Source: an uncultured bacterium (GTDB lineage: Bacteria > Patescibacteriota > Minisyncoccia > Phycocordibacterales > UBA5272). Taken from it: a stretch of DNA of 39,836 bases. The notes beneath the pieces are model-generated. The model was not told where the DNA came from and did not search any database. It saw only the letters and a program-made list of their open reading frames with translations. Both the position numbers and the translations under genes were made by a program. Below, one piece after another: positions 1-16,788 of this stretch. The stretch covers positions 1-39,836 of the forward strand of contig CAIQWN010000037.1 in assembly GCA_903875555.1 (NCBI GenBank). Direction: 5' to 3'. Within the stretch, counting starts at the first letter, position 1. Every line of letters starts with the position of its first letter.

Positions 1-989
1 AAGTCTGCTGAATCCTTGGAAGATATCGCAAGATCAACTCCTGCGTATGTGCCACGATATGCCTTGTGTTTTGTTCCAGGTAATTCTTCGTAATACTGAA
101 ACCATTCAGGATAAATAACCTGATCATCACTTGGAATTATTCGGAGAAGATATTCCCGTTGCCACGATATTTCACTCGCAACATTCATTTTTTCATCTTC
201 AATATCTTTTACTGTGGGGTACTTTCCAAGCCATAGACATACATCATCTTGACCAAGTAACGGATACTGACTAAAAGTTCCTTTGGATCTCTTATTTTCA
301 ATATCTTCTTTAATTCTCATAAGTAGTGAATCCTCGTGCAAAAGGTTTCCGACAACAATGAGGCGAGTTTTACGATCTCCAGCAGGAACAACTTCACCAT
401 AAAGCCACTGATATGTTTTATCTCGACCCTCACGAGTTTTGGTTGATTGTACATCTTCTACGTCGTCACAGATAATAAGGTCTGGACGGTGTTCGTTATG
501 TCGTGATCCTCGGATACTTTGCTCTGCTGATGCTACAGTGATTCTGGCACCGCTTTTATTGAAGACAAGTGAATATGAACCCCATTCGTCACTTTCTTCT
601 TTAAATGGTCCTAGATCTCTTTTAAGGAGATCATTACCCTCAAGTTCTCCTCGAATATTCATCATGTGCTGTTTAGCTTGCACTCTGGTCTGACAGAAAA
701 TCATACAAAATTTCTTTTGCTGTTTTCCAAGAATAGCCCAAATAGGATAGGCGGTCGTTACCATGGTTGATTTACCTGATCCACGAAATGCGACAATATA
801 GAGATTATCAACAGCACTTTTTTCAAGGTTGTGAATAATCTCTTTTTGAAAGTCTGCCGTTTCGTATTTTACATAGTGGGCATAGTAGAAGTGAAAGAAG
901 TAGAGAAAACTATCCCTAGTGATTGATGTACGCACCAATCTATCTTTCATCATTTTATTTACTAAACTCTTTTCAATTATTTTGTTCAT
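1..989 (-). CDS. terL: Phage terminase large subunit (TerL): N-terminal ATPase plus the start of the nuclease domain. The start codon is at 989; the 3' end runs off the window, so the ORF is absent from the track.
   Basis: Manual translation from ATG 989-987 gives MNKIIEKSLVNK...DNLYIVAFRGSGKSTMVTTAYPIW (Walker A), RPDLIICDDVED (Walker B), RLIVVGNLLHEDSL and GVDLAIS. The frame stays open to position 1. It lies directly downstream of a TerS-like gene. Confidence 0.85.
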   Translation of the reverse strand, partial: MNKIIEKSLVNKMMKDRLVRTSITRDSFLYFFHFYYAHYVKYETADFQKEIIHNLEKSAVDNLYIVAFRGSGKSTMVTTAYPIWAILGKQQKKFCMIFCQTRVQAKQHMMNIRGELEGNDLLKRDLGPFKEESDEWGSYSLVFNKSGARITVASAEQSIRGSRHNEHRPDLIICDDVEDVQSTKTREGRDKTYQWLYGEVVPAGDRKTRLIVVGNLLHEDSLLMRIKEDIENKRSKGTFSQYPLLGQDDVCLWLGKYPTVKDIEDEKMNVASEISWQREYLLRIIPSDDQVIYPEWFQYYEELPGTKHKAYRGTYAGVDLAISSKDSAD

Positions 990-991
990 AA

Positions 992-1399
992 CTATTTACC
1001 TTTATTAATTCTTTTAATTGATTTCGACTTGGTTATATTTGCGAGTTTCAATGCTTGCTTCACAATCTTTGCCTGTGATGGTGTTAGCTCTTCGTTGTCT
1101 TCTTTGGTGATAATTTCTAACTTGTTTTTGTAGTTATCATTTCGGTGGCGAAGCCAGAAGCTGATTGCGGGATAGTTCTTTTCTTTGATAAGAGTGAGTA
1201 ATTGGCTTTCGCTCATGTCGTTCACCAATGCTACGCCGTCTTTGAGTGCTTGATCCATTTTCTTGCAGAAAGATTGATCATCTTTTCGCCAACGGTATAC
1301 ACTATTACGAGACACGCCTGTTTTTTCACAAGCCACCTGCACAATCGGAACCTTTGTCAGTTCTTCAAAAAACTGATCCTGGAGTTTATTTTTCTTCAT
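992..1399 (-). CDS. Terminase small subunit-like HTH DNA-binding protein
   Basis: 135 aa with an N-terminal HTH-like segment (VACEKTGVSRNSVYRWRK). Its stop is 2 nt from the terL start and it overlaps the upstream methyltransferase by 14 nt. The call rests on position and size; there is no catalytic motif. Confidence 0.55.
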   Translation of the reverse strand: MKKNKLQDQFFEELTKVPIVQVACEKTGVSRNSVYRWRKDDQSFCKKMDQALKDGVALVNDMSESQLLTLIKEKNYPAISFWLRHRNDNYKNKLEIITKEDNEELTPSQAKIVKQALKLANITKSKSIKRINKGK

Positions 1400-2660
1400 A
1401 GAAGTTTTTGATTATTTCTGCTTTGCGACCTGTCAACTTCTCGTAACGGCGAATTGCTAAGTCGCAGAACACAGGCTCGATTTCGAGAGAGTACACTTTG
1501 CGACCCAATTGCTCCGCACATATCATCGTACTTGCCGATCCTGAAAAGGCGTCAAAAATAATGTCGCCTGGTTTAGTGCAACGCATGATGAACTTATGAT
1601 GCAATTCTGGGTTTTTACTTGTCGGATGTTCCATCTGATTCGACGGTAGTCGTTTGGTCGCCCAAATGTTTGAAATATCTTCAAGTAATTGGTTACCCGT
1701 AGTACAATCCTTATTCTGAATTTCGTTAAGATTTTTTACGAGATCAGACAAGTACGGCGACCCCTTAGTTCCATAAACACAAAACTCCGTGCATTTTGAA
1801 AATGCCACGGTCGGGGTCGGTGAAGAATTATTTTTGATCCAGATGTTAACCCTTCGATTCTTGATACCAAGTTCCATATAGAGTGTCTGAAAAACCCACG
1901 TCCAAGCTTCATCACACCAGAACGCAACATGAATATCTTTGATAGATATTGAGAGTGACGATTGCATGACCTTGCGAATAAAATTTACATATTCGTCTGT
2001 TGATTGGTTGTCGTCGAAGGATCCACCATAATTACTTTTATTACCTACACCTTTGTCATACGAAAGCCCGATATTGAACGGTGGATCACTATATATGGCA
2101 GTGGCTTTGTGTTCACCGAATAGTTTTTGTACTGCATGTATGTCTGTTGAACTGGCACACAAAAGTTTGTGATCACCCATAATGATCAAATCGCCAGACT
2201 TGGTCTGTGGTGTTTTGATTTTTTTGAGTTCCTTGTCTACATCAAACTTATCGTCTTTGGTATCTTTTTCCTCGTCCCAAAATTTTACCAACTCTTTCTC
2301 ATCGAATCCTGCGAATTGAAGTAATTCCAAATCAAAAGACTTTAACTTGTCGAAATCCCACTCGCCATCATTGATATTACTTTCGATTCCGATCTTGCGA
2401 CGCTCTTTGTCTGTGAGCTTACGACTCGGAATCATTACGTTCACAGTACTTACTCCAAGTTCCATGAGTGCTGTTTTTCGTTGATTACCCGAGAGTATCG
2501 TATTGTCGGTATCAATTACAATTACGCTGTGAAAACCATTTTGAGTTATTTTTTCTTTTAATTTATCTAACGCTTGCTTCGAGATTTTTCTTGGGTTTTC
2601 TTTCCAAGGGAATAGGTCTTTGACCTCTCGTATTCCTGTTGTCCATGAAAGTTTTTTCAT
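1386..2660 (-). CDS. ParB-like N-terminal domain fused to an N6/N4 DNA methyltransferase (beta-class motif order)
   Basis: 424 aa. The N-terminus is ParB-nuclease-like (ILSGNQRKTAL). Motif IV is SDPPFNIG, followed by motif I, FDAFSGSASTMICAEQLGR. This fusion is typical of phage genomes. Confidence 0.85.
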   Translation of the reverse strand: MKKLSWTTGIREVKDLFPWKENPRKISKQALDKLKEKITQNGFHSVIVIDTDNTILSGNQRKTALMELGVSTVNVMIPSRKLTDKERRKIGIESNINDGEWDFDKLKSFDLELLQFAGFDEKELVKFWDEEKDTKDDKFDVDKELKKIKTPQTKSGDLIIMGDHKLLCASSTDIHAVQKLFGEHKATAIYSDPPFNIGLSYDKGVGNKSNYGGSFDDNQSTDEYVNFIRKVMQSSLSISIKDIHVAFWCDEAWTWVFQTLYMELGIKNRRVNIWIKNNSSPTPTVAFSKCTEFCVYGTKGSPYLSDLVKNLNEIQNKDCTTGNQLLEDISNIWATKRLPSNQMEHPTSKNPELHHKFIMRCTKPGDIIFDAFSGSASTMICAEQLGRKVYSLEIEPVFCDLAIRRYEKLTGRKAEIIKNFYEEK

Positions 2661-2700
2661 AGCATTTTATTATTACTCTTAATAAAATGTATGGATATAG

Positions 2701-2772
2701 AAAAAGCCTACTCCACACACGAAATAGGGAGAGGTCCGAAAAACCTCAAACTACTTCTTGCGCGGAATAGGC
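2701..2772 (-). terminator. Compound stem-loop followed by a T-run on the minus strand, downstream of ORF 2819-3238
   Basis: GCCTACTCC (2706-2714) pairs with GGAATAGGC (2764-2772) with one G-T wobble. An inner hairpin GAGGT...ACCTC is present, and AAAAA at 2701-2705 reads as a T-run on the minus strand. Confidence 0.35.
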
Positions 2773-2818
2773 ATGGCTTGTGGCGCTACACTACTCGCTT
2801 TTACGACGCGTATTTAAT

Positions 2819-3238
2819 TTAATACTCCTTGTCTTTCTTTATCTTTCTCAAGATTCGCTTTCCTTTAGTACTGTTCACAAAATCGACAGCATCTTTACCA
2901 AGGTGTATTGGTAATCCTGTTTTTGGTATTTGTATCATCACACGATAACCTTGTTTTTGGTAATCACTGATTACTTGCTTTAAAACAGGATCATTCATTG
3001 CAAACGGTACTTTGAATGCTATTGAATTTTGATCATTACTTAAGTCTTGCTTCTTCTCAAAAGAAGAAAAGATACGACCCGGCTTATTCTTTTCTATGGA
3101 GCGTCGTATTGCACCACCAACCGATTGGGTAGGTCTTGCATTAGAATGCAACTGTATATCGGTAAGCTCAAGAATGATGACTTTTTCACCTTTCTTTGGA
3201 AGCTGTGTTACTCGATTTAATTGCAGACTTTGCTCCAT
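2819..3238 (-). CDS. Hypothetical protein, divergent from the repressor gene
   Basis: 139-aa ORF with no recognisable motif. It occupies the cro/antirepressor-like position opposite the S24 repressor. Confidence 0.45.
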   Translation of the reverse strand: MEQSLQLNRVTQLPKKGEKVIILELTDIQLHSNARPTQSVGGAIRRSIEKNKPGRIFSSFEKKQDLSNDQNSIAFKVPFAMNDPVLKQVISDYQKQGYRVMIQIPKTGLPIHLGKDAVDFVNSTKGKRILRKIKKDKEY

Positions 3239-3301
3239 GAGCTAAGTATATCAAAGTTCCGTAAAAAATGTCAAATGAATGTTGTTGCAAGTCTAAAAGT
3301 A

Positions 3302-3310
3302 TGCTATAAT
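3302..3310 (+). promoter_or_regulatory. Extended -10 box TGCTATAAT, 6 nt upstream of ATG 3317 (leaderless arrangement)
   Basis: Read directly from the sequence. The TGnTAnnnT-N6-ATG geometry recurs at 12 or more other genes in the window. Confidence 0.5.
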
Positions 3311-3316
3311 GGACAT

Positions 3317-3958
3317 ATGCACAACAAACAGAAACAGCTTTTAGCTCTCTTAGACAGTGATCCAAACATTGGGTCATACAGCCTTAGAACAATAGCCGAT
3401 AAAATTGGCGTGCCTGACAAACCGCAAATAGTGAAATATCACTTACAACAGCTTGAAAAGGCTGGAATGATTCAAATGAACCTTGAGCAAGGGGTTATAA
3501 AACCTGTGAAGCGAGGTCTTGTGAAATCAACAGTTAACACCGTGTTCTCACTCCCTGTTGTTGGATCTGCAAACTGCGGTCCTGCAACTATATTTGCCGA
3601 GCAAAATATTCAGCAGTATCTAAAAGTTTCATCTTCTATGTTGCCGTACAACAAAAAGGATCTTTACTCTGTTATTGCAGATGGTTCGAGTATGAATCTC
3701 GCAAAAGTAGATGAAAAGAATACTATCAAAAATGGAGACTTCGTACTTGTAGATAGTGGGTACAAGAACTATAAGAATGGAGATATTGTAGTTGCTGTTA
3801 TAGACGGCATGGCTACTATCAAAAGGTATAAATACGAAAAAGAAAATCAGCGTATCGTGCTTGAAGCAGATTCAACTGAAAAATATTTACCGATATTTAT
3901 TCATGAGGGTGATGATTTTCAATTAAGTGGAAAAGTTGTCGGAATTATTAAAAGTTAA
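3317..3958 (+). CDS. LexA/CI-type repressor with a winged-helix N-terminus and an S24 peptidase C-terminus
   Basis: The track ORF starts at 3221, but that extension overlaps the divergent gene. In-frame ATG 3317 gives MHNKQKQLLALLD..., a LexA-like N-terminus. The S24 catalytic Ser sits in ADGSSMN and the Lys in ATIKRYKYE. Confidence 0.8.
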   Translation: MHNKQKQLLALLDSDPNIGSYSLRTIADKIGVPDKPQIVKYHLQQLEKAGMIQMNLEQGVIKPVKRGLVKSTVNTVFSLPVVGSANCGPATIFAEQNIQQYLKVSSSMLPYNKKDLYSVIADGSSMNLAKVDEKNTIKNGDFVLVDSGYKNYKNGDIVVAVIDGMATIKRYKYEKENQRIVLEADSTEKYLPIFIHEGDDFQLSGKVVGIIKS

Positions 3959-3969
3959 TTTATAAAAAT

Positions 3970-4209
3970 ATGTCTAAGAAAAACATACATACTGTTTACA
4001 GTAAAGATAGAGAAATGTGGGAGACAAAAAAGGAGGGTCAATCAAAACCACTTGCTTCTTCACACACAAAAGCCGCCGCAGAAGAAAAATCAGTAAGAGA
4101 AGCTAAAAAAAATGAGGTCGAACACATTATTCACAATAAGGATGGAAAGATTAGCGACAAAGACAGTTACGGAAAAGATCCTAATCCACCGAAAGACCTT
4201 AAACACTAA
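3970..4209 (+). CDS. DUF2188 family small protein
   Basis: 79 aa. The pattern HTVYSKDREMWETKKEG...HIIHNKDGKISDKDSYGKDPNPP matches the DUF2188 signature as I recall it. Confidence 0.7.
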   Translation: MSKKNIHTVYSKDREMWETKKEGQSKPLASSHTKAAAEEKSVREAKKNEVEHIIHNKDGKISDKDSYGKDPNPPKDLKH

Positions 4210-4214
4210 TTCAC

Positions 4215-4727
4215 ATGTCTTATAAGAATAAAACTTATGTTGCCTTTGATGGAGATAACGATATGAAATATTATCGTTTAATGACTGCATGGAAAGAGCA
4301 TGATCATATTGAATTTGATTTTTTAAATGCTCATGACATAAACAGTGCGAGAGATACTAGTACAGAAGAATCAATAAAAGCCCAATTAAGAATACGAATG
4401 GCTAATTCAAAACAAATGCTTTTACTGGTTGGAGAAAATACAAAATATTTAAGAAAATTTTTACCTTGGGAGATAGAACTTGCAAGAAAAAAAGATATAC
4501 CAATTATTATTGTAAACTTAAATAATAAAAAAGGTTACGATGACACTCTTTGTCCATCTGTTATTAAAGATTGGAAATATACTATTTCAGTACCATTTAA
4601 ATTAAAAGCAATACAATATGCACTAGATCATTTCCCTGATAATTATGATAAATGGAAGAATCATCCTGATTATCAAGACCATAGATATATTTATACAGAT
4701 GCAACTTATAACCAACTCGGCATATGA
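4215..4727 (+). CDS. thsB: TIR-like protein, ThsB-type (DUF1863 / PF08937-like)
   Basis: 170 aa. KTYVAFDGDNDMKYYRLMTAWKEHD...LNAHD...STEESIKAQLRIRMANSKQMLLLVGENTKYLRKFLPWEIELA is the characteristic ThsB TIR-like N-terminal pattern. ATGA stop/start overlap with the next gene. Confidence 0.8.
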   Translation: MSYKNKTYVAFDGDNDMKYYRLMTAWKEHDHIEFDFLNAHDINSARDTSTEESIKAQLRIRMANSKQMLLLVGENTKYLRKFLPWEIELARKKDIPIIIVNLNNKKGYDDTLCPSVIKDWKYTISVPFKLKAIQYALDHFPDNYDKWKNHPDYQDHRYIYTDATYNQLGI

Positions 4728-5569
4728 TAAACAGTATTTTTTCGAAAAGAATGGCGACTAAGTTAAGTATTAACTTTTTTGTTTCTGTCGGTGTAATTAG
4801 TGGAGTAATCCAAATTATCACATCTAGTTATCCAGACCTCATAGCTCACTACCAATGGAAAGGTTGGGTTACTATTTTATTGATTTGCTTAATTTTTGCA
4901 TTTATTAGATCATGGCCAAAAAGAAGTTTCTCTGAGTCATTCGCAAATCCTGATGTAAAAATTGGTATAAAAGTTGGAAACATCTTTGATCAAGAGGGAC
5001 ATCTTGTCATTGGTTTTAGTGATACATTTGATACAGAAATAGGTGATGTTGTAAGTAAGGATAGTATGCAGGGACAGTTTTTGGTATCTATGTATGGAAA
5101 CAATCAAAATAAACTCGATATCGATCTTGACGCACTACTCCAAAACGAAGAATCAGAAGAAGATATAGAAAAAACTCGTGGTAAAAACAAAAGATATAAA
5201 GTTGGTACAGTAGTATCCCTTTCAGGATTAAACAGAAAGTTCTTTTGTTGTGCATATAGCCGTATGGGAGCAGATCTTAAAGCAACTTCAGATATAAATA
5301 GTCTATGGGTGTCACTTCAGAATCTTTGGAACAAGATTAGAATTGAGGGAGAGCAAAAAACTATTGTAATGCCTGTCATTGGTACTAATTTAGCAAGAGT
5401 TCCTGGTATCTCATTTAAATTACCGATAGACCTTATTTTGCTTTCATTCATTATTAATTCTAGGGTAGAACCAATTTCAAAAGAACTAGTCTTGATGATA
5501 AGAGAAGAAGACAAGGATAAAATAAATTTATTAGAAATTCAAGATTTTTTAAAATCTTTACACAACTAA
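4724..5569 (+). CDS. thsA: ThsA-like effector: two N-terminal TM helices plus a macro-type (ThsA_Macro/DUF6430-like) domain
   Basis: 281 aa. Hydrophobic helices LSINFFVSVGVISGVIQIIT and WVTILLICLIFAFI are followed by IKVGNIFDQEGHLVIGFSDTFDT, which resembles the start of the type II Thoeris ThsA macro domain. It is flanked on both sides by TIR genes. Confidence 0.6.
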   Translation: MINSIFSKRMATKLSINFFVSVGVISGVIQIITSSYPDLIAHYQWKGWVTILLICLIFAFIRSWPKRSFSESFANPDVKIGIKVGNIFDQEGHLVIGFSDTFDTEIGDVVSKDSMQGQFLVSMYGNNQNKLDIDLDALLQNEESEEDIEKTRGKNKRYKVGTVVSLSGLNRKFFCCAYSRMGADLKATSDINSLWVSLQNLWNKIRIEGEQKTIVMPVIGTNLARVPGISFKLPIDLILLSFIINSRVEPISKELVLMIREEDKDKINLLEIQDFLKSLHN

Positions 5570-5572
5570 TTT

Positions 5573-6115
5573 ATGGCTTATCGAAGTGGAACATATATAG
5601 CCTTTCACGCAGACGGAGAAACTAATCCAACTGCTTCTGATATGAAATATTACAACACATTAAAAATGTGGAAAGTTAGAGATGATGATTTTAGTTTTGC
5701 AAATAGCCATGAGAAAACTAATGCTGTTAGAGATTCAAGTAAAAAAGAAACATTACGCAGGACTTTAATTGAAAGAATGAATAAATCAAAACATCTACTA
5801 TTAATTATTGGGGCAACAACAAAATATGATACTGACTGGGTACCATTTGAAATAAAATATGCAGTGGAGACCTGCGGTATCCCTATTATTGCTGTTTATA
5901 CAGGTTACAATAAGATCATGGCACCATCAGCACTTTCAGATTTATGGCCCAAGGAACTATCAAAAGCCATAGAAAGTAAAACCGTTGGGATCATACATGT
6001 ACCCTTCAAAAAAGAACCCATAGCAGACGCAATTTCTCAGTTTGATATGAATAATCACCCTAAAACAACACTGAACCACTACACTCAAGAGGCTTACAAT
6101 TCTTGGGGATTATAG
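5573..6115 (+). CDS. thsB: Second TIR-like protein, ThsB-type (DUF1863-like), a divergent paralogue
   Basis: 180 aa. GTYIAFHADGE...DMKYYNTLKMWK...RDSSKKETLRRTLIERMNKSKHLLLIIGATTKYDTDWVPFEIKYA has the same architecture as 4215-4727. It starts 3 nt after the thsA-like stop. Confidence 0.8.
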   Translation: MAYRSGTYIAFHADGETNPTASDMKYYNTLKMWKVRDDDFSFANSHEKTNAVRDSSKKETLRRTLIERMNKSKHLLLIIGATTKYDTDWVPFEIKYAVETCGIPIIAVYTGYNKIMAPSALSDLWPKELSKAIESKTVGIIHVPFKKEPIADAISQFDMNNHPKTTLNHYTQEAYNSWGL

Positions 6116-6145
6116 TGTAAAGTTACAGATGTCTGTAACTTTACA
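6116..6145 (+). terminator. Perfect 13-bp stem / 4-nt loop hairpin immediately after the second thsB stop. No T-run follows.
   Basis: TGTAAAGTTACAG-ATGT-CTGTAACTTTACA, read directly from the sequence. Confidence 0.4.
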
Positions 6146-6177
6146 TACCCTATACCGTGTCACTTTTGTCACTTTTT

Positions 6178-6330
6178 ATGAATCAAGAAGATAAGAAAAA
6201 TCCTGATAATTGGACTAAAGAAGAAACTGATAGAGTGGTGGCAGTTTTCCAATGGTTACTAGATCAAGATAGAAAGCAAAACCCTCATTTATATACAAAG
6301 AAAGCTACTCTCGAGAAGGGTCAATTATAA
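6178..6330 (+). CDS. Possible 50-aa small ORF (MNQEDKKNPDNWTKEETDRVVAVFQWLLDQDRKQNPHLYTKKATLEKGQL)
   Basis: Manual translation; it is below the track length cut-off. No motif and no clear promoter. Confidence 0.25.
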   Translation: MNQEDKKNPDNWTKEETDRVVAVFQWLLDQDRKQNPHLYTKKATLEKGQL

Positions 6331-6430
6331 GGTCAGAAAGAGTCTAAATAAGCCTTGTGGGGCAATGAACCCTTGGGTCGCATCACGAGTAGGCTCACAA
6401 ATATAGATTTTTCTGTTATACTATACCCAT

Positions 6431-6805
6431 ATGAAAAATGTATTAATTGTAGAAGATAATATTGACCTACAAAATATTTATAAAATTGCTTTTGGTGCTG
6501 CGAACATTCCTGTTGTTATAAAAAGTAACGGACTTGAAGCCATAGCAGAAATCACAGAAATAGACCCTGCTATTATTTTACTTGACCTTCTAATGCCAGA
6601 TCTTGATGGTTTTAAATTTATGGAATTGATGAAAGAAAAAACTTCATTAAATATTCCCGTAATTGTTTGTTCTAATCTTTCTGATGAAAAGAGTCGTCAA
6701 AAATGTTCTGAATATGGTTGTTACGATTATCTAATCAAAGCCGATGTAGACATCTCTGACATTGTTAAAAAAGTTCAAAAATTTTTCGCAGAACATAAAG
6801 AGTAA
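6431..6805 (+). CDS. Stand-alone response regulator receiver (CheY-like) protein
   Basis: 124 aa. VLIVEDN, the phospho-acceptor context ILLDLLMPDLDG, and the conserved Lys in DYLIKA. TGTTATACT lies 8 nt upstream of the ATG. Confidence 0.9.
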   Translation: MKNVLIVEDNIDLQNIYKIAFGAANIPVVIKSNGLEAIAEITEIDPAIILLDLLMPDLDGFKFMELMKEKTSLNIPVIVCSNLSDEKSRQKCSEYGCYDYLIKADVDISDIVKKVQKFFAEHKE

Positions 6806-6812
6806 CCAAAAA

Positions 6813-6844
6813 ACAAAAATCACCGAAAGGTGATTTTTGTTTTA
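6813..6844 (+). terminator. Rho-independent terminator of the response regulator gene
   Basis: ACAAAAATCACC-GAAA-GGTGATTTTTGT followed by TTTAAT. Confidence 0.8.
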
Positions 6845-7134
6845 ATATTTATAACCCAGAATATAAATAACTCTATACATCATTATATTCTTTTGATACG
6901 TGTGTATAAATGGATTTCACATTTATGTCGTTCGGTCGCTAAGTATCATATAAGCTTCCTCACCTAGCCTTAACCCCTGTATAATAAGGATACGAGCTAG
7001 TTATATAAATATTGTATCACATTATTTAAAACTTTTTAATCTAGATAATTCTTCATTATATACAACATTAAAGACAGAAGACTTTTATGACTTACTTAAC
7101 AACTCTTTAAATGTTCTAGTTTTATTTTGCTTTT

Positions 7135-7356
7135 TCATTTTATATGTTTTTCAAATTCACTATATAGAACATCTATATCTCTGCAAATTTTTCCAACTGT
7201 TCCTGCCATAATTTCGTTATTACTATGTTTTGGCACAACAGTTATTTTTCCTGAAGCGTTCGCAAATATTATATGGCTTCCTTTTTACCTTTCTTTAAAA
7301 TAACCAAAATACTCTAACGCTTTAATAACTTGTTTATATTTTAGAGCCTTAGACAT
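7135..7356 (-). pseudogene. hicA: hicA-type toxin gene interrupted by an in-frame TAA (plus-strand 7285-7287)
   Basis: Manual translation gives MSKALKYKQVIKALEYFGYFKER*KGSHIIFANASGKITVVPKHSNNEIMAGTVGKICRDIDV.... The KGSH and VP.H...GT motifs are HicA hallmarks. The stop sits one residue before KGSH. The start overlaps the hicB stop by 8 nt. Confidence 0.75.
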
Positions 7357-7603
7357 ATTCTAAATTATATGGAAGCACTCCAAAAAATCTATTTTCACTC
7401 TTTACGATACTTAACAATTTCTTTTCTCCATAATATTCTTTTAACAAAGACATCACTTCATTTAAATTTTTTATAGCCTGTTCCAAAGTCATTCCGTCCG
7501 CGTGAGCTCCATTTATCCCAGGGATAGACACAACAAAACCCCCAGAAATATCTCTTTCCACCAAAATATTAGTTCCTAAAGTTTTTTTATTTCCTTTAAT
7601 CAT
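7349..7603 (-). CDS. hicB: HicB-family antitoxin (UPF0150-like)
   Basis: 84 aa. GGFVVSIPGINGAHADGMTLEQAIKNLNEVMSL is a HicB N-domain pattern. It is translationally coupled to the hicA remnant. TGGTATATT-N6-ATG lies upstream. Confidence 0.7.
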   Translation of the reverse strand: MIKGNKKTLGTNILVERDISGGFVVSIPGINGAHADGMTLEQAIKNLNEVMSLLKEYYGEKKLLSIVKSENRFFGVLPYNLEYV

Positions 7604-7636
7604 ATATACAATATACCACTTATAATTTTACACGCA

Positions 7637-7674
7637 AGGTCGGTTCTTGCCTTGGACCCAGCAAGAACCGACCT
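7637..7674. repeat. GC-rich hairpin family, copy 1 (14-bp perfect stem, 10-nt loop CTTGGACCCA)
   Basis: AGGTCGGTTCTTGC-CTTGGACCCA-GCAAGAACCGACCT. Confidence 0.75.
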
Positions 7675-7729
7675 AGTATTTCGATTTTGCATCTCACTAT
7701 TGGCTATACCCTAGTGGCTAATCCCTATT

Positions 7730-7834
7730 CTATATCTTCACCTCCGCACTCTGCTCCACAAGTTTCGTCGGAATCGCCACTGTAAAAGTAGATCCCTTTC
7801 CCCACTCTGACACTACAGAAATTTTTCCTTTGTT
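7730..7834 (-). pseudogene. Orphan histidine-kinase 3' end, copy a (last 34 codons plus stop)
   Basis: The reverse-strand translation NKGKISVVSEWGKGSTFTVAIPTKLVEQSAEVKI* aligns with the C-terminus of the HK at 10980-12632 (HKGKISVVSEWGKGSTFTVAVPTKL...). Confidence 0.8.
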
Positions 7835-7961
7835 CGTCGCATCTCAATGGACAGTACGTTCCCGATTTCTTAGATTGTAATCAATCTGTTGAAATTGCAA
7901 TGCTGTAAGTGCGACGCGAATTAGAAAATTCGTGGCTCGGCCATAAACTTTTGCAAAATCA
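7835..7961. repeat. Module M, copy 3: hairpin CGTCGCA...TGCGACG with a TCAATGGACA loop motif expanded by about 55 nt, plus the partial palindrome TTTTGCAAAATCA
   Basis: Alignment by eye to 9152-9196, which has the same orientation and the same abutment to an HK fragment. Confidence 0.55.
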
Positions 7962-7995
7962 ACCACTTCTTTACATATAAACTTTTTTACATCAA

Positions 7996-8004
7996 TGTTA
8001 TAAT
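7996..8004 (+). promoter_or_regulatory. Extended -10 TGTTATAAT, 6 nt upstream of ATG 8011
   Basis: Read directly from the sequence. Confidence 0.5.
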
Positions 8005-8010
8005 TTAAAT

Positions 8011-8619
8011 ATGATTATCGAAGTTGATGAATATAAAAAGAAAATACCAAACTACAACGCAGAAAAATCTGAAGATTTTCATCGTGAAAGTGCAAAACTT
8101 GCAGATAAAGATTTTATTAAACATCTTAAAACTAAAAAATATAAAAGAATTATTTTTATGGCTGGAGGCACAGCAAGTGGAAAGACTGAATATTCCACTT
8201 CATATTTAATAAACAAAGACCAGCTTGTTTATGACGGCACACTAAAAAACATAAATGGTTTTAATATAAAGTTAAAACACATAAACAAATATAGCAATGA
8301 AAGTAAAGTAAAAGTAGTTCTTATAATTCCGATTAATTTATCTACATCTTATAATGTGTTCCACGCGAGAGAAAGAAAAATGCGTGATGAAGTATTTTTT
8401 GAGACCCAAATTAAAAGCAAAGAAACTGTTGCTCAGATTTTGAGAGAAACAAAGATTAAAGTAGAAATATATTCTAGTGCATATGAAGAAAAAAAAGATA
8501 AACTATCTTTTAAAAGATTAACAGGCTCAAGAAATAGAAAAATGACAGCAAAACTTCTTGACTATCTCGCTAGTGAAATTAGAAATATTGCAAAAAGAAA
8601 CAACTTTACTATTAAGTAA
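8011..8619 (+). CDS. Zeta-toxin-family P-loop kinase-like protein
   Basis: 202 aa. Walker A is MAGGTASGKTE. HRESAKLADK lies upstream and DGTLKN downstream, in the same order as zeta/PezT family members. Confidence 0.6.
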   Translation: MIIEVDEYKKKIPNYNAEKSEDFHRESAKLADKDFIKHLKTKKYKRIIFMAGGTASGKTEYSTSYLINKDQLVYDGTLKNINGFNIKLKHINKYSNESKVKVVLIIPINLSTSYNVFHARERKMRDEVFFETQIKSKETVAQILRETKIKVEIYSSAYEEKKDKLSFKRLTGSRNRKMTAKLLDYLASEIRNIAKRNNFTIK

Positions 8620-8640
8620 AAAACAGTTAATATATAAATT

Positions 8641-8775
8641 ATGATAACAATACTCGGTGTTAAATTTCCAGTTTCTAAAAAAACCCTATATCCAAAAGAA
8701 ACAGAGGTTATTAGGTCATATATAGACGCAATCAAAAAAGGTAAAGGGAGTGCTGAAAGAAATCTTAAAATTTAA
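8641..8775 (+). CDS. Possible 44-aa ORF downstream of the zeta-like gene (MITILGVKFPVSKKTLYPKETEVIRSYIDAIKKGKGSAERNLKI)
   Basis: Manual translation. It starts 21 nt after the zeta-like stop and has no motif. Confidence 0.25.
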   Translation: MITILGVKFPVSKKTLYPKETEVIRSYIDAIKKGKGSAERNLKI

Positions 8776-8788
8776 TAAATTACAGTTA

Positions 8789-8853
8789 GGTCGTCAAATA
8801 AAATTTAAATCTGCAAGGTAAGACCTTGCAGAATTAAATTTTATTTGACGACC
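8789..8853. repeat. Long near-perfect palindrome (31-bp arms, one mismatch, 3-nt loop)
   Basis: GGTCGTCAAATAAAATTTAAATCTGCAAGGT-AAG-ACCTTGCAGAATTAAATTTTATTTGACGACC. The apex is a CTGCAAGG/CCTTGCAG unit that also occurs at 15065-15085 and in variant form at 16107-16125. Confidence 0.85.
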
Positions 8854-8945
8854 ACTCCCCGAATTAAAAAGTTAGAAATTGTTTAATCTATGAACGAGGT
8901 TTTAAATTTTAAATGTCTTGCGCAGTGTGACGACACGAGCAGAGC

Positions 8946-8989
8946 TGATTTTGCAAAATCACGTCGCACTGTGTCCATTAAAGTGCGAC
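8946..8989. repeat. Module M, copy 1: perfect 16-bp palindrome TGATTTTGCAAAATCA plus hairpin GTCGCACT-GTGTCCATTAA-AGTGCGAC
   Basis: Read directly from the sequence. It is inverted relative to copies 2 and 3. Confidence 0.65.
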
Positions 8990-9046
8990 CCAGCAGAAAA
9001 TTATGCGTGCATTTTAAATTTAAAACCGAGTGAACTTTTATGACTT

Positions 9047-9151
9047 TTACACTTTCACCTCCGCGCTCTGCTCCACCAACTTCGTCGGCACCGCCACCGT
9101 AAACGTAGACCCTTTTCCCCATTCTGAGACCACAGAAATTTTTCCTTTGTG
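9047..9151 (-). pseudogene. Orphan histidine-kinase 3' end, copy b (last 34 codons plus stop)
   Basis: The reverse-strand translation is HKGKISVVSEWGKGSTFTVAVPTKLVEQSAEVKV*. The roughly 60-nt core is nucleotide-identical to copy c. Confidence 0.8.
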
Positions 9152-9196
9152 CGTCGCGTTTCAATGGACATTACGCGACGTGATTTTGCAAAATCA
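9152..9196. repeat. Module M, copy 2: hairpin CGTCGCG-TTTCAATGGACATTA-CGCGACG plus the 16-bp palindrome TGATTTTGCAAAATCA
   Basis: Read directly from the sequence. It abuts HK fragment b. Confidence 0.65.
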
Positions 9197-9242
9197 ACCA
9201 CTTCTTCACATTCAGACTTTTTTACATCGCAGAATTAAATTT

Positions 9243-9974
9243 CTACCTAATATTATTTAATTCTTGATTACACTCAGCAGATACTCTTCCTTCTTTAAAA
9301 CAATTCAACACCTCGACTTTTTGTTCTGCATTAAAAATATTTTCTTTTAAATTAGTTGCACATCTTTGATAAATATAAAATCTTTTAAATAAATTAGAAT
9401 CCAATAATTCCGATAAAGTTTCTTCAATATTTCTGTAAGCTTCATCATGACTTTCTTTTTTTGTAAATCTTGCTGGGTATCCCAATCTTTTAAGTTCACT
9501 ATATCTGTAATCTAAACTTGCAAGAGATAATTCATAAGGTGTTGATATTGCAACAAGATTTATTTCGTAATCGTTATCTTTCAAATTCAAAGCGGTTTTC
9601 ATAGGAACTTCTTTTTTTCTCATTGTTCCTTCAACTATAAAATCTAAGCCCCTATTTATACATTCTTGAATTAACGATTCTACCCAGAAGTTACAAATAG
9701 CCTGTGTCATATCTGCTGCTTCTATATCATTCTCCTTTAAATAAAAATAATATTTAGGATGATAAGCCCTTAAATCATCTCCATTAATAAAAACAATATT
9801 TTTATTAATCTTTATTAATTCCCTAGCGAAAGCACTTTTACCACTACCAGGTTGACCACCTAAAATGAAGGCCTGTTTTATTTCTTGTGACAAAACACCA
9901 CTTGTCATCTGCGGAATTATCATTTCTTTAAAAATAGAAACTGCATCTTCTTGTGATATGTCAAAATTATTCAT
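9243..9974 (-). CDS. Zeta toxin family kinase (PezT/zeta-like)
   Basis: 243 aa. Walker A is ILGGQPGSGKSAF, with INGDDLR and VEGTMR motifs in the canonical order. Confidence 0.85.
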   Translation of the reverse strand: MNNFDISQEDAVSIFKEMIIPQMTSGVLSQEIKQAFILGGQPGSGKSAFARELIKINKNIVFINGDDLRAYHPKYYFYLKENDIEAADMTQAICNFWVESLIQECINRGLDFIVEGTMRKKEVPMKTALNLKDNDYEINLVAISTPYELSLASLDYRYSELKRLGYPARFTKKESHDEAYRNIEETLSELLDSNLFKRFYIYQRCATNLKENIFNAEQKVEVLNCFKEGRVSAECNQELNNIR

Positions 9975-10167
9975 ATTCTTTTAATTTTTTATCTATTACA
10001 CTTAATCTTTCCAAAAGAGAATTATATTCAAAAACATCTTCATAATAAACATTATGTCTTATAAATTGTAAATCATTGATCAAAATATTATCTTTAAAAT
10101 AAATAGCCTTACCTAAAAGAGTATTTATCATATTTAGTAATATTTCTATTTGTAAAACTTTATCCAT
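9967..10167 (-). CDS. Candidate epsilon-like antitoxin of the zeta toxin
   Basis: 66-aa helical ORF overlapping the zeta start by 8 nt, with TGGTATAGT-N6-ATG upstream. The assignment is by position only. Confidence 0.5.
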   Translation of the reverse strand: MDKVLQIEILLNMINTLLGKAIYFKDNILINDLQFIRHNVYYEDVFEYNSLLERLSVIDKKLKEYE

Positions 10168-10207
10168 AAATTTACTATACCATCAAAATATAAACTAGTC
10201 CATACTA

Positions 10208-10243
10208 GGTCGGTCCTTGCCTTGGACCCAGCAAGGACCGACC
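10208..10243. repeat. GC-rich hairpin family, copy 2 (13-bp stem, loop CTTGGACCCA)
   Basis: GGTCGGTCCTTGC-CTTGGACCCA-GCAAGGACCGACC. It lies 11 nt downstream (on the minus strand) of the stop of HK fragment c. Confidence 0.75.
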
Positions 10244-10254
10244 CCTCCACTCCA

Positions 10255-10464
10255 CTATTTTATTTTTCCTTCTTCCTTAATAAATACCTCCACATTCTCT
10301 TCCTTCAGTTTAGTTGGTACCGCCACCGTAAACGTAGACCCTTTTCCCCATTCTGAGACCACAGAAATTTTTCCTTTGTGTAATTCAACAACTTCTTTTA
10401 CGAAATACATACCAAGTCCGTTTCCAGAAATATTTGTTCCAACGCTTTCCTCTCTAGCGAACTT
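10255..10464 (-). pseudogene. Orphan histidine-kinase 3' end, copy c (last 69 codons plus stop, in frame, no internal lesions)
   Basis: The reverse-strand translation is KFAREESVGTNISGNGLGMYFVKEVVELHKGKISVVSEWGKGSTFTVAVPTKLKEENVEVFIKEEGKIK*. This is almost identical to the HK C-terminus, including the G2 box. There is no upstream coding continuation. Confidence 0.85.
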
Positions 10465-10530
10465 TTAATTTTCCTATTGCAAAAAAAAACTGTTGTGCTA
10501 TATTATATATATTAGGGCTTCGGCCTCCGA

Positions 10531-10554
10531 GAAAACCACCGCAAGGTGGTTTTC
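10531..10554 (-). terminator. Terminator hairpin downstream of the MazF-like gene
   Basis: The minus strand reads GAAAACCACC-TTGC-GGTGGTTTTC, with the T-run forming part of the 3' arm. Confidence 0.55.
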
Positions 10555-10564
10555 GATTCTTTAA

Positions 10565-10975
10565 CTAAATAAATTCTTTAATCTTATCTTTAATATTTTT
10601 AAAATCTCCTTTAGAAATATTTCCAACTTTTCTTAATAATCTTTTATTATCAATAACCTTAATTTGTGTTAACTTAACCCAAACTTTTTTATTCTTAATT
10701 TCATTATCTTTTTTTTCAAAAATATTTAACTCATAATGAAAATTATCGCTCTTCTTTTTGCTTGTAATAGGAACAACAAGCATAGATTCTTTATTGTATA
10801 CTTTCAATATCAAAACCGGCCTTTCAAAATTTTCATTCTTTCCATCAACTTCACTTCCTATATTAACCCCTAACGAACACCACCAAATTTCTCTTGGATA
10901 ACCAAAAACCAATCTCTCATTCCTGTTTATATTTTTCTTTTCGATATTCCATTTATCAAAATTCTTAATATGCAT
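10565..10975 (-). CDS. PemK/MazF-family toxin-like protein, solitary
   Basis: 136 aa. REIWWCSLGVNIGSEVDGKNENFERPVLILKVYNKESMLVVPITSKKK matches the long-form PemK/MazF pattern as I recall it. It starts 4 nt after the HK stop and has no antitoxin-sized ORF adjacent. Confidence 0.65.
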   Translation of the reverse strand: MHIKNFDKWNIEKKNINRNERLVFGYPREIWWCSLGVNIGSEVDGKNENFERPVLILKVYNKESMLVVPITSKKKSDNFHYELNIFEKKDNEIKNKKVWVKLTQIKVIDNKRLLRKVGNISKGDFKNIKDKIKEFI

Positions 10976-10979
10976 ATAT

Positions 10980-12632: not shown

Positions 12633-12634
12633 AA

Positions 12635-14278: not shown

Positions 14279-14311
14279 ATTGTTAAGTATACAACATAAT
14301 TTCTAAAAAAA

Positions 14312-14956
14312 TTATAAATTATACACTACTTCCATAACTTTTATCGCATTCTTTTTAAATTCTCCTTTTTCTAAATCTTTTGGATATATCGGTTTACCAA
14401 AAATTACTTTGATTTTTCCTTTCCCAAAAAAGAATTTAAACAGTGTCATATCTTTCGTTCCTGAAATAAAAGTAGGCACAATAACACTTTCTGTTGCTTC
14501 AGCTAAATATCCCACTCCACCTTTTGCCTCTCTTAAAGTTCCATCTTTATTAATCTTTCCCTCTGGAAAAATACAAACAGACTTCCCTTTTCTTAAAAAG
14601 ATTAGATGGTACGGTAACGCAAAAGCATAGTCGTGATGTCCTGGGTATGCTGGATACGCCCCCCATAATCTAAAGAAAAAACCTCCGTAAAAAATTCTTT
14701 TCAGTACGGTGTTATTATAAAATTCTTTTTCTCGCGACACATAATACATTGGCCTTAACTCAGAAAAAAAAGGCACAGCACCAGTTACAACTATTGGGTC
14801 GAGTTCTCCAAAATGATTAGAAGCAAAAATTATTCCTCTACTTTTACTTTCCAAACCTTTTAGGTTTTTCAAACCTTTCACTTTAAAATCCACAAACAAA
14901 CCAAAAACAAACCTCATAAAAGGCCAAGAGATACTTTGTAATATAAAAGGAATCAT
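14312..14956 (-). CDS. plsC: 1-acyl-sn-glycerol-3-phosphate acyltransferase family protein (PlsC-like)
   Basis: 214 aa. The H(X)4D motif is in ASNHFGELD and FPEG in CIFPEGKINKDG. TGGTATTAT-N6-ATG lies upstream. Confidence 0.85.
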   Translation of the reverse strand: MIPFILQSISWPFMRFVFGLFVDFKVKGLKNLKGLESKSRGIIFASNHFGELDPIVVTGAVPFFSELRPMYYVSREKEFYNNTVLKRIFYGGFFFRLWGAYPAYPGHHDYAFALPYHLIFLRKGKSVCIFPEGKINKDGTLREAKGGVGYLAEATESVIVPTFISGTKDMTLFKFFFGKGKIKVIFGKPIYPKDLEKGEFKKNAIKVMEVVYNL

Positions 14957-15137
14957 TTAAATATAATACCACGAAAATAAATTTAATATTTGTGTCAACA
15001 AGTTTTACATATCATTTACAGGTCAGCTCTGTATGTCTAGTTCCTTCCTAGACATTTAATTTCTCTGCAAGGTCTTGCCTTGCAGAATTGTTTTTAAGAG
15101 GGTCGGTCATTGCTGGGCCCGTGGCAATGACCGACCC
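14957..15137. repeat. Unit A: plsC upstream region carrying three hairpins; duplicated at 15992-16206
   Basis: Shared with unit A': TATAATACCACGAAAATAAATTT, an ATGTCTAG...CTAGACAT hairpin, a CTGCAAGG-TCTTG-CCTTGCAG hairpin (present in variant form in A'), AATTGTTTTTAA, and a GC-rich hairpin. Confidence 0.65.
15100..15137. repeat. GC-rich hairpin family, copy 3 (14-bp stem, loop TGGGCCCGTG)
   Basis: GGGTCGGTCATTGC-TGGGCCCGTG-GCAATGACCGACCC. Confidence 0.75.
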
Positions 15138-15215
15138 ATAATTTTTACCAAACACAAACACCAAATTTAAATTTGACTTATTTTTTAATAAATATATAAT
15201 ATAAACATAACTACG

Positions 15216-15257
15216 AAAAAGACCCTTATGCGGGTAAGTCCGCATCGGGGGCTTTTT
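15216..15257 (-). terminator. Terminator downstream of the NYN gene
   Basis: The minus strand reads AAAAAGCCCCCGATGCGG-ACTTA-CCGCATAAGGGTCTTTTTC. The stem is imperfect and is followed by a T-run. Confidence 0.55.
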
Positions 15258-15261
15258 CATT

Positions 15262-15768: not shown

Positions 15769-15783
15769 ACAAATATTATATCA

Positions 15784-16359: not shown

Positions 16360-16362
16360 AAT

Positions 16363-16776: not shown

Positions 16777-16788
16777 AAAATAATTATA

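Follow-up and report, generated by a model that had tools for sequence, protein, structure and literature searches.

A two-ThsB type II Thoeris locus on a small phage-derived element of a CPR bacterium

A contig from a lake metagenome, belonging to a CPR bacterium, carries an ordinary, intact type II Thoeris locus, in which two TIR proteins (ThsB-a and ThsB-b) are encoded around one membrane-anchored macro effector (ThsA). The locus lies on a small phage-derived integrative element of CPR bacteria, which is not a complete prophage. The best explanation of the locus as a whole is, with high probability, a functional type II Thoeris system that is read from a repressor promoter on this mini-element. 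The Thoeris side adds little, as all three genes fall within standard defence-finder models; the value of the finding is mostly contextual and lies in the carrier element. The analysis covered a window of 39,836 nucleotides (the whole stretch of DNA under study) and followed up a sequence-only reading, which had also suspected a reduced-genome lineage, in agreement with the CPR host. Signalling-type, membrane-targeting immunity is thus kept under strong purifying selection in CPR bacteria, whose genomes are smaller than 1 Mb.

The thsB-a/thsA/thsB-b genes and their products

The locus consists of three genes:

4215-4727, plus strand: thsB-a, 170 aa; TIR-like protein of the EcThsB2 (subfamily 9) type, predicted sensor/signal synthase; Tyr8, with Glu86 as catalytic residue
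4724-5569, plus strand: thsA, 281 aa; predicted effector; two TM helices at the N-terminus, signal-binding macro domain at the C-terminus
5573-6115, plus strand: thsB-b, 180 aa; second, divergent TIR-like protein (3HYN/9UV0 type), likewise a predicted sensor/signal synthase; Tyr8, with Glu93 as catalytic residue

The tight packing described in the sequence-only reading is exact in both the ORF list and the sequence: thsB-a and thsA share an ATGA overlap (4724-4727), and thsA is separated from thsB-b by a 3-nt gap, TTT (5570-5572). Its identification of type II Thoeris was supported as well: curated Thoeris models (Pfam PF08937/PF20016 and PADLOC) span the full length of all three proteins, the effector has the macro fold, and the Glu is present in both TIR proteins. 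Matches to curated models with E-values between 1e-52 and 1e-83 far exceed chance; an NCBIfam search of the three proteins gave no match. Type I Thoeris is ruled out, as SIR2 and SLOG domains are both absent.

The two N-terminal TM helices and the macro domain that had been proposed for the middle protein were recovered by hydropathy, profile and structure prediction. ThsA matches PADLOC model PDLC00415 at 4e-83, and its macro domain covers 183 of the 183 profile positions of PF20016 (ThsA_Macro) at 1.5e-52. The AF2 model (pLDDT 89.9) shows two helices that form a membrane hairpin, at residues 8-35 and 44-63, together with a macro domain, and Kyte-Doolittle peaks lie at ~14-34 and 46-64. In the PDB, ThsA matches the solved structures 8v6q, 9uuz, 8r66, and 8v6s, and by Foldseek its model superimposes on the macro crystals of EcThsA, PcThsA, and BaThsA (8v6q, 8v6s, 8r66) with TM-scores of 0.80-0.84. 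At the level of this structural comparison, a MacroD-type catalytic hydrolase role is disfavoured, as the nearest structures are ligand-sensing ThsA macros.

The binding pocket is largely retained. The BaThsA residues that contact His-ADPR (N133, Q135, S194, R240, and Y277) align with Q116, Q118, S179, R225, and R260 of ThsA, i.e., four of the five contacts are kept, three of them identically and one conservatively (N133 to Q116). Q116 and R225 are invariant across 50 homologues, and the BaThsA counterpart of the latter, R240, binds the histidine carboxylate of His-ADPR. The fifth contact, a water-mediated one from Y277 to the adenine, is changed to R260. Since N133 is replaced by Gln and the Y277 contact is not conserved, the identity of the ligand could differ from that of BaThsA.

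Both flanking proteins belong to PF08937 (ThsB_TIR), at 7e-17 for ThsB-a and 8.5e-18 for ThsB-b, and cross-matches show them to be divergent paralogues with ~31-36% identity, as the sequence-only reading had suggested. ThsB-a is recognised by PADLOC models PDLC00429 (1.6e-69) and PDLC00440 (6e-52), and its residues 1-169 align with EcThsB2 (8V6T) at 4e-35. ThsB-b is recognised by PDLC00421 (6.7e-67) and matches 3hyn (7e-19) and 9uv0 (2e-16) in the PDB; the nearest folds of its AF2 model (pLDDT 80.7) are 3hyn and 8v6t (Foldseek TM 0.72-0.80), followed by NDT, DNPH1, and TIR NADases. E86 of ThsB-a and E93 of ThsB-b, the predicted catalytic glutamates, occupy the alignment position of the Glu in 8V6T, 3HYN, and 9UV0. 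Y8 and E86 are invariant among the orthologues of ThsB-a, and Y8, W33, and E93 in 42 homologues of ThsB-b; the solved ThsBs share the Tyr and the Glu. Tyr8 lies in the first beta-strand (TYVAF in one protein, TYIAF in the other), and the nearest non-ThsB folds are Tyr7/Glu NDT enzymes; by analogy with NDT Tyr7, and given its invariance, it is a putative active-site tyrosine. An active-site Tyr plus Glu marks ThsB subfamilies 7-9, which are limited to TM-macro ThsA partners (Shi et al.).

The order thsB-a/thsA/thsB-b is kept, with all three ORFs intact, in 11 loci. Strong purifying selection acts on each of the three genes (pN 0.02-0.30 versus pS 0.56-0.93; pN of thsB-a 0.02-0.19), which rules out pseudogenisation. 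Elsewhere, a pair of ThsA and a ThsB of the ThsB-b type occurs without ThsB-a (L015-L017), and ThsB-a and ThsA form a pair on their own (L014); the trio therefore resembles two two-gene systems that have been joined. As each ThsB is found solo with ThsA, this pair offers a clean natural case for sensor modules being added to one effector. ThsB-a is >90% identical across CPR classes, whereas a housekeeping protein is ~67% identical to named CPR relatives, which indicates horizontal spread. No relative of ThsA turned up in a pattern scan of IMG/VR, and INPHARED phages gave a single match of 24% identity, so that these two collections hold no evidence for this system in sequenced phages.

The carrier element and its switch region

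The genes and sites around the trio are, from left to right:

3..989, minus strand: terminase large subunit (TerL), 5' part; first 329 codons, no stops; the contig ends within the gene
992..1399, minus strand: TerS-like small HTH protein, 135 aa
1386..2660, minus strand: fusion of a ParB N-terminal domain and an N6/N4 DNA methyltransferase, 424 aa
2819..3238, minus strand: variable small gene, 139 aa, read divergently to the repressor gene and probably the second arm of the switch
3239..3316, no strand: divergent control region, 78 bp, with back-to-back candidate promoters
3317..3958, plus strand: LexA/CI-type repressor (wHTH plus S24 self-cleaving peptidase domain), 213 aa, with ATG 3317 as probable start
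3970..4209, plus strand: DUF2188 small protein, 79 aa; optional passenger between repressor and Thoeris
6116..6145, no strand: inverted repeat TGTAAAGTTACAGA / TCTGTAACTTTACA, perfect over 14 bp with a 2-nt spacer, from the first base after the thsB-b stop
6159..6176, plus strand: tandem GTCACTTTT x2, just upstream of the small terminal ORF
6178..6330, plus strand: small terminal ORF, 50 aa from ATG 6178 (listed from GTG 6157); right end of the element
6331..6402, no strand: approximate right end of the element; similarity to the end of the L002 element stops at ~6402

The genes to the left of the switch are phage-related. The ParB-methylase (PF01555 1.1e-27 and PF02195 8e-4 in Pfam; the L002 orthologue matches phrog_498 at 5e-71) begins 1.55 kb to the left of Thoeris and is followed by the TerS-like gene and the partial TerL, so that the proximity of ParB-methylase and terminase genes had been rightly seen. 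The TerS-like protein matches terminase small subunit families (phrog_4044 1e-8, phrog_4102 1e-5), with weak Pfam HTH and Sf6_terminase matches, and in relatives its gene always lies between the ParB-methyltransferase and TerL. The partial TerL is 81-82% identical to the complete proteins of 495-498 aa in L002, L009, and L010; TerL of relatives matches phrog_38 (terminase large subunit, 2.4e-76) and is ~27% identical to that of Mu-like phages.

Placement at the edge of a prophage, as the sequence-only reading had it, holds in part: a repressor switch and TerS/TerL are present, but complete relatives have no portal, capsid or tail genes and form a compact integrative element instead. These relatives are 8-17 kb long and share the order large serine recombinase, TerL plus TerS, ParB-methylase, and a divergent switch with an S24 repressor. 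In those examined for structural genes (L005, L009, L010, L018, L020, L022, and L023), no portal, capsid, tail, or lysin genes were found, the recombinase or defence/DGR cargo follows directly after TerL, and no replication module was recognised in the element backbone. In the window, the recombinase would fall beyond the contig end. Many genomes and IMG/VR contigs contain this same set of backbone genes, at 77-87% nucleotide identity, a recurrence that points to an element being maintained and not to separate events of decay. Behind the repressor lies a slot for exchangeable defence cargo: in L018, it holds a different TIR system (TIR plus 8xMP) on the same backbone, in line with the earlier suggestion of an accessory, moron-like module. 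A second slot, flanked by TerL and the recombinase, is occupied by a type III RM system, a PycTM-like protein, and a DGR. CPR hosts thus appear to gain Thoeris via a compact element of phage origin, in which TIR-based systems replace one another in the slot next to the repressor. Literature searches on the term "8xMP" and on the PDB codes 9UV0/9UUZ found nothing relevant.

As had been noted from the sequence, the trio lies downstream of an S24 repressor and a DUF2188 gene; all are on the same strand, the gaps from repressor to DUF2188, thsB-a, thsA, and thsB-b being 11, 5, -4, and 3 nt. The repressor matches PF00717 (8.4e-20), with weak wHTH matches in Pfam, and phrog_4 (transcriptional repressor, 2e-19). 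Its ORF is open from 3221 and the gene caller placed the start at 3275; ATG 3317 is preferred from the position of the promoter and from the length of 205-218 aa in relatives. The DUF2188 protein (PF09954 2e-13; PADLOC candidate PDC-S16 1.3e-22) is encoded in L005, L006, and L011 and missing from L002, L009, and L010. For the divergent 139-aa gene, no significant family match was found among Pfam, PADLOC, and PHROG profiles, and unrelated genes of 207-289 aa take its position in relatives.

Both candidate promoters are read by consensus, while promoters of this lineage are poorly known. On the minus strand, TTGACA (3274-3269) and TATACT (3250-3245), spaced by 18 nt, match at 11 of 12 positions, with a TG motif, and end 6 nt before the start codon of the 139-aa gene; on the plus strand, an extended -10 element, TGcTATAAT (3302-3310), lies 6 nt before ATG 3317 and is conserved in L011. 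Judging from these positions, both promoters may be active and both transcripts leaderless or nearly so. Inside the operon genes, promoter-like matches are weak (9/12) and fewer than in shuffled sequence, and a scan detected no terminator-like site. The sequencing runs that contain this sequence are DNA runs only.

The operon probably ends in a hairpin, formed by the inverted repeat at 6116..6145, in which the stem is conserved and the loop variable in L002 and L008-L011; a scan that requires a T-run found no canonical terminator after thsB-b, the 14-bp palindrome having no T-run. The tandem GTCACTTTT is nearly invariant in the same loci, even in L002, where the downstream ORF is deleted, and is possibly an operator or promoter element. 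The small terminal ORF is called as a 50-aa gene on a sister contig and is 81-88% identical in L008-L011; it has no meaningful Pfam match. Blastn similarity to relatives ends at 6284, and the flanking response-regulator gene begins at 6431. A repeat search of the window found no direct repeats that could be att sites, as expected for a serine recombinase, and the window holds no tRNA genes or Rfam families, which leaves no att site of the tRNA type and no RNA associated with the locus. At the right end, no excision junction was seen in contigs of four lake-water runs; these contigs include one variant that is divergent between ~2208 and 3900.

Proposed mechanism and competing explanations

The operon of repressor, DUF2188, and the three Thoeris genes is presumably transcribed from the promoter of the S24 repressor, and from this shared promoter it would follow that Thoeris is made while the carrier element is quiescent. 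Upon infection, one or both ThsBs would become active. By homology to characterised systems, their Glu/Tyr site would replace the nicotinamide moiety of NAD+ with an imidazole-containing base, with histidine as the base and His-ADPR as the best-supported product. The signal would then enter the macro pocket of ThsA, and the oligomerising macro domains would cluster the two TM helices, leading to membrane damage or growth arrest before the phage cycle is complete. For BaThsA, His-ADPR signalling and pocket mutants have been published; it has also been reported that the nucleotide drives macro oligomerisation and TM clustering, and that the TM helices of ThsA are necessary for defence. The effector step is unsettled even in characterised systems, as the two-ThsB type II system of E. 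coli causes growth arrest while membrane damage and NAD loss are undetectable. The two divergent ThsBs most likely broaden the phage range of one shared effector.

That the two ThsBs are not equivalent, one being the true synthase and the other a regulator, a producer of a different imidazole-type nucleotide, or toxic unless buffered, seems unlikely. The low identity between the paralogues, their different PADLOC models, and the solo pairing of each type with ThsA would fit such a division, as would the E. coli proteins: EcThsB2, the closest solved relative of ThsB-a, shows no NADase activity in vitro, while EcThsB1 took histamine, not histidine, and is toxic in laboratory strains. Against this, both ThsBs keep the full putative Tyr/Glu site and are under equally strong purifying selection; in a type I Thoeris with two divergent ThsBs, both make the activating signal and their phage ranges add; and EcThsB1 is a PF13676 TIR, whereas both proteins here are of the PF08937 type. 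It is highly improbable that the locus is a decaying, non-functional prophage remnant. The terminase genes without structural genes and the contig break inside TerL would suit a remnant, but the intact ORFs, the low pN relative to pS, the invariant catalytic and ligand-binding residues, and the recurrence of the backbone all speak against it.

With the functional type II Thoeris retained, two further readings concern whom it serves and how it travels. The main beneficiary might be the mobile element, which would use the same biochemistry to exclude competing phages and elements or a non-helper phage; we consider this somewhat doubtful. Close relatives always carry the system with the backbone of recombinase, TerL, TerS, ParB-methyltransferase, and switch, its slot is occupied by the other TIR system in L018, a second slot has a type III RM and a DGR, and ThsB-a shows horizontal spread. 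A benefit to the element is nevertheless compatible with host protection, L007 has the trio without adjoining backbone genes, and non-CPR relatives lie in ordinary chromosomal defence islands. It can also be proposed, tentatively, that Thoeris is cargo of an undescribed phage-satellite-like family specific to CPR/Patescibacteria with two defence hotspots and an SOS-cleavable, leaderless S24 switch, which would spread between CPR classes in the capsids of helper phages via its own terminase and give ultra-small episymbionts abortive-type immunity. The gene content (integrase, repressor, and packaging genes, no virion genes) matches that of PICI-like satellites; no att sites were found. The literature search returned no paper connecting phage satellites with CPR and no description of this backbone combination as a satellite family; an aquifer defensome paper names Thoeris in an anti-Thoeris context only. 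Should the element prove to be a true satellite, it would open a way to study horizontal transfer and the conflict of phage and host in an experimentally near-intractable lineage.

Comparison with known systems

Defence genes are familiar cargo of temperate phages and satellites: rexAB of lambda is co-transcribed with cI, P2 and P4 have hotspots, and PICIs encode immunity. The present locus resembles these in that an operon lies directly downstream of a repressor, with which it is apparently co-transcribed, and in that a conserved backbone has a fixed position at which cargo can be exchanged. Unlike in known satellites, the backbone consists of a serine recombinase, TerL/TerS, ParB-methylase, and an S24 switch, without structural genes or a recognisable replication module. 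To our knowledge, this combination is undescribed as a satellite family, and we know of no helper phage for the element.

The presence of two ThsBs around one effector, which the sequence-only reading had singled out as worth confirming, is not unusual: Thoeris systems with several ThsBs have been known since the discovery of the system, and a two-ThsB type II Thoeris has been characterised experimentally in E. coli ATCC 25922 (EcThsA, EcThsB1, EcThsB2; 8V6Q/R/T). That system likewise combines one TM-macro ThsA with two different ThsBs; ThsA finds its best match in EcThsA, by structure as well as by sequence, and ThsB-a is a full-length homologue of EcThsB2, of subfamily 9, a type marked by an active-site tyrosine and a C-terminal tail. 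In contrast, the second ThsB of E. coli is a TIR of PF13676 that carries an additional region at its N-terminus, one of the thsB genes there lies on the opposite strand, and its thsB1 is toxic or dispensable, whereas both ThsBs here are PF08937 proteins, encoded co-directionally and tightly coupled to thsA.

The BaThsA/BaThsB system of B. amyloliquefaciens Y2 (His-ADPR; 8R66) also has a ThsA with two N-terminal TM helices and a macro domain (TM 0.82 between the macro folds) and a PF08937 ThsB partner, whose Tyr/Glu site has a putative counterpart here; Q135, S194, and R240 of BaThsA are kept. ThsB-b resembles 9UV0, which is deposited as ThsB and is probably BaThsB, given that the entry paired with it, 9UUZ, is identical to 8R66 in the alignment. 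The B. amyloliquefaciens system differs in a macro identity of only ~23%, in the residues at N133 (Gln here) and Y277 (Arg here), and in having one ThsB rather than two flanking thsA; the present system has a CPR host, a mobile mini-element, and a LexA-type repressor. Similar to the right half of the trio are the pairs of large-genome bacteria (L015-L017), in which a 279-aa ThsA is followed, after 5 nt, by a 183-aa ThsB that is 61-63% identical to ThsB-b. Unlike the trio, these pairs have no upstream ThsB-a and are not on a TerL/recombinase element; they lie beside RM systems in defence islands.

The TIR/TM-macro/TIR trio

Three co-directional ORFs, with exactly the coordinates and junctions given by the sequence-only reading, form the locus; thsB-a and thsA overlap by ATGA (4724-4727), with TTT (5570-5572) left between thsA and thsB-b:

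4215-4727, + strand, thsB-a, 170 aa
4724-5569, + strand, thsA, 281 aa
5573-6115, + strand, thsB-b, 180 aa

Both flanking proteins match the Pfam family ThsB_TIR (PF08937; 7e-17 and 8.5e-18), and the middle protein matches the entire ThsA_Macro profile (PF20016, 1.5e-52). Full-length PADLOC matches were obtained for ThsA (PDLC00415, 4e-83; PDLC00439, 3e-80), ThsB-a (PDLC00429, 1.6e-69) and ThsB-b (PDLC00421, 6.7e-67). With a 50-sequence profile, ThsA matches the macro domains of EcThsA from E. coli (8V6Q/R), PcThsA (8V6S) and BaThsA from Bacillus amyloliquefaciens (8R66, 9UUZ) at 1e-28 to 1e-31; ThsB-a matches E. coli EcThsB2 (8V6T) across its whole length (4e-35), and ThsB-b matches 3HYN (7e-19) and 9UV0 (2e-16). 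Pfam, PADLOC and solved structures thus agree with the earlier assignment to type II Thoeris.

The ThsA model (pLDDT 89.9, pTM 0.83) consists of long N-terminal helices (residues 8-35 and 44-63) and an alpha/beta domain, for which the ThsA macro crystals rank first in the PDB (TM 0.80-0.84, probability 1.0), ahead of macroH2A, the Oceanobacillus MacroD-like domain and PARP14 macro domains, the same neighbours that were reported for BaThsA (Sabonis et al.). Independently of the model, hydropathy reveals two TM-grade segments (14-34 and 46-64), so that the macro fold proposed for the middle protein is borne out, and its two N-terminal TM helices are likewise predicted. The ThsB-b model (pLDDT 80.7) lies closest to 3HYN and EcThsB2 (TM 0.72-0.80), followed by nucleoside 2'-deoxyribosyltransferases (NDTs), DNPH1, a B. 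cereus TIR and the SARM1 TIR; as modelled, this neighbourhood matches a ThsB class described by Shi et al., whose Tyr-Glu active site is NDT/DNPH1-like and whose members accompany TM-macro ThsA exclusively.

Alignment of both paralogues, from 10 loci each, to the solved ThsBs shows no variation at Tyr8 of the first strand or at the presumed TIR catalytic glutamate (E86 in ThsB-a, E93 in ThsB-b); Y8, W33 and E93 are also invariant across 42 wider ThsB-b homologues. The ligand pocket of ThsA was compared with BaThsA, the numbering offset of 8R66 being set by the spacing of N133, S194 and R240 (chain N53, S114, R160).

BaThsA contacts to His-ADPR and the corresponding residues of the window ThsA
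N133: Q116, conservative change, invariant within the clade
Q135: Q118, identical
S194: S179, identical
R240, holds the histidine carboxylate: R225, identical and invariant
Y277, water-mediated contact: R260, changed; His in EcThsA

How type II Thoeris works has been published: His-ADPR made by ThsB is bound by the ThsA macro domain; nucleotide-induced macro-domain oligomers cluster the TM helices, defence is lost in pocket mutants and requires the TM helices, and in one recently described system growth is arrested but classical abortive infection does not occur. The window trio is very probably a functional type II Thoeris. The sequence-only interpretation is essentially right. The system is unexceptional within a defence family that is already well characterised, and standard tools would annotate it.

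Several ThsBs per locus are common and, in type I, add phage specificities; a type II system with two ThsBs, as in the window, has been analysed in detail in E. coli ATCC 25922. The order ThsB-a/ThsA/ThsB-b is conserved in the related loci L002-L013. Each ThsB type is also found alone with ThsA, the ThsB-a type in L014 and the ThsB-b type in L015-L017, so the trio has the appearance of one effector shared by two sensor modules. Decay is ruled out for all three genes, since pN (0.02-0.30) is far below pS (0.56-0.93); dN/dS, where estimable, is 0.02-0.19.

A CPR-specific carrier with cargo slots

The less ordinary part of the finding is the CPR-specific carrier with its defence-cargo slots. On the same strand, thsB-a is preceded by a DUF2188 gene (5-nt gap), which in turn lies 11 nt downstream of an S24-peptidase repressor. 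To the left of the repressor, on the opposite strand, follow a 139-aa gene, a ParB-N6/N4 methyltransferase, a TerS-like HTH gene and a partial TerL of which the first 329 codons are present, as the window is a whole contig of 39,836 bp and begins inside this gene. The DUF2188 gene (3970-4209), present in only some element copies (L005, L006, L011), corresponds to PDC-S16, a single-gene defence candidate in PADLOC (1.3e-22).

In L005, L009 and L010, the block comprises a large serine recombinase, TerL (phrog_38, 2.4e-76), a TerS-like gene, the ParB-methylase, a variable gene, the S24 repressor, optionally DUF2188, Thoeris and a small ORF; in L009 it spans ~8.3 kb and is bordered by an Eco57I-like RM gene on one side and thymidylate kinase on the other. 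A TerL search of IMG/VR yielded six further backbone copies (L018-L023): the recombinase directly follows TerL in L020, L022 and L023, the three copies complete on that side, cargo follows TerL in L018 and L019, and L021 stops inside TerL. The recurrent backbone, found in CPR MAGs and IMG/VR contigs, measures 8-17 kb, and its TerL is a real yet distant relative of Mu-like phage terminases (~27%). No portal, capsid or tail gene was found in any copy (window 1-6402, L002, L005, L009, L010, L018-L023). The proposed prophage edge therefore stands only in part: terminase, ParB-methylase and S24 repressor do adjoin Thoeris, but no complete relative is a full prophage. The element carrying Thoeris resembles a satellite-like mini-element, or else a reduced prophage that is stably maintained, and the backbone may represent an undescribed phage-satellite-like family.

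In L018, the slot after the repressor (3582-4907, - strand) holds a 123-aa gene, a PF08937 TIR (1e-14) and an 8xMP membrane protein (PF24838, 1e-45). This different TIR system in the same slot marks Thoeris as swappable cargo, in line with the "moron-like" module suggested earlier. The slot between TerL and the recombinase (9579-17144) is occupied by a type III REase and a type III MTase, together with a PycTM-like protein and a DGR-like reverse transcriptase. Both slots act like hotspots for defence cargo.

Type II Thoeris loci and the element also repeatedly adjoin RM systems (Eco57I-like type IIG, type ISP, type I), and these neighbourhoods are typical defence islands:

L009, 331-3453
L015/L016, 2060-5152
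L017, 626-3540

Switch and transcription

A 78-bp region (3239-3316) separates the repressor from the 139-aa gene, which starts at 3238; this region contains two back-to-back putative promoters, a layout resembling lambda PRM/PR. The - strand promoter is near-consensus (TTGACA-18-TATACT) and ends 6 nt before 3238; the + strand extended -10 (TGcTATAAT, 3302-3310), conserved in L011, lies 6 nt before the ATG at 3317. Judged from this spacing, each message would have a very short leader or none. Scans of the five + strand genes detected no terminator-like site, and the only promoter-like matches were weak (9/12) and less numerous than in shuffled sequence. The five-gene string closes with a perfect 14-bp palindrome (6116-6145) that begins at the base after the thsB-b stop; relatives retain it, with differing loops. 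Given the + strand extended -10, the uninterrupted string and the closing palindrome, Thoeris would be co-transcribed with the S24 repressor. A tandem GTCACTTTT x2 motif follows the palindrome (region 6116-6176); both features are kept in relatives, even in L002, which has lost the 50-aa ORF downstream of them.

Mosaicism is evident in the repressor/switch module: its identity to those of L002, L009 and L010 is 32-35%, versus 82-97% in flanking genes. A contig from a sister lake sample (run X2) matches the window to ~2208 and again from ~3900, and differs between, which suggests a co-existing element variant with another methylase end and switch/repressor module.

Host and right flank

The source sample is a lake-water metagenome, and the remainder of the contig carries cellular genes (Ddl, TsaD, CofD, Wzy, glycosyltransferases). 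The nearest ThsA relatives (78-86% identity) stem from MAGs named Candidatus Saccharibacteria, Paceibacterota and "Patescibacteria group"; proteins of Candidatus Nomurabacteria and Paceibacterota, encoded on 680-816-kb contigs, are among the members of the ThsB-a 90% cluster, and TsaD is nearest to named Candidatus proteins including Nomurabacteria (~67-68%). These relatives in CPR MAGs support the reduced-genome lineage supposed from sequence. Element genes are far more alike between CPR classes than a housekeeping gene, which points to a putative spread by horizontal transfer. A 67%-identical ThsA is encoded in L013 (CAYSME010000033.1), a 7.7-kb contig binned as "uncultured Gammaproteobacteria" and arranged as in the window (ParB-MTase/g139/S24/ThsB-ThsA-ThsB), which reflects a binning error or else transfer to a host outside CPR.

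The right flank of the element (6431-12632) is rich in stress and toxin genes, in order:

stand-alone response regulator
7349-7603, HicB-like antitoxin
8011-8619, Zeta-toxin-like kinase
9243-9974, second Zeta-toxin-like kinase, with a small upstream partner (9967-10167)
10565-10975, PemK/MazF toxin
10980-12632, histidine kinase
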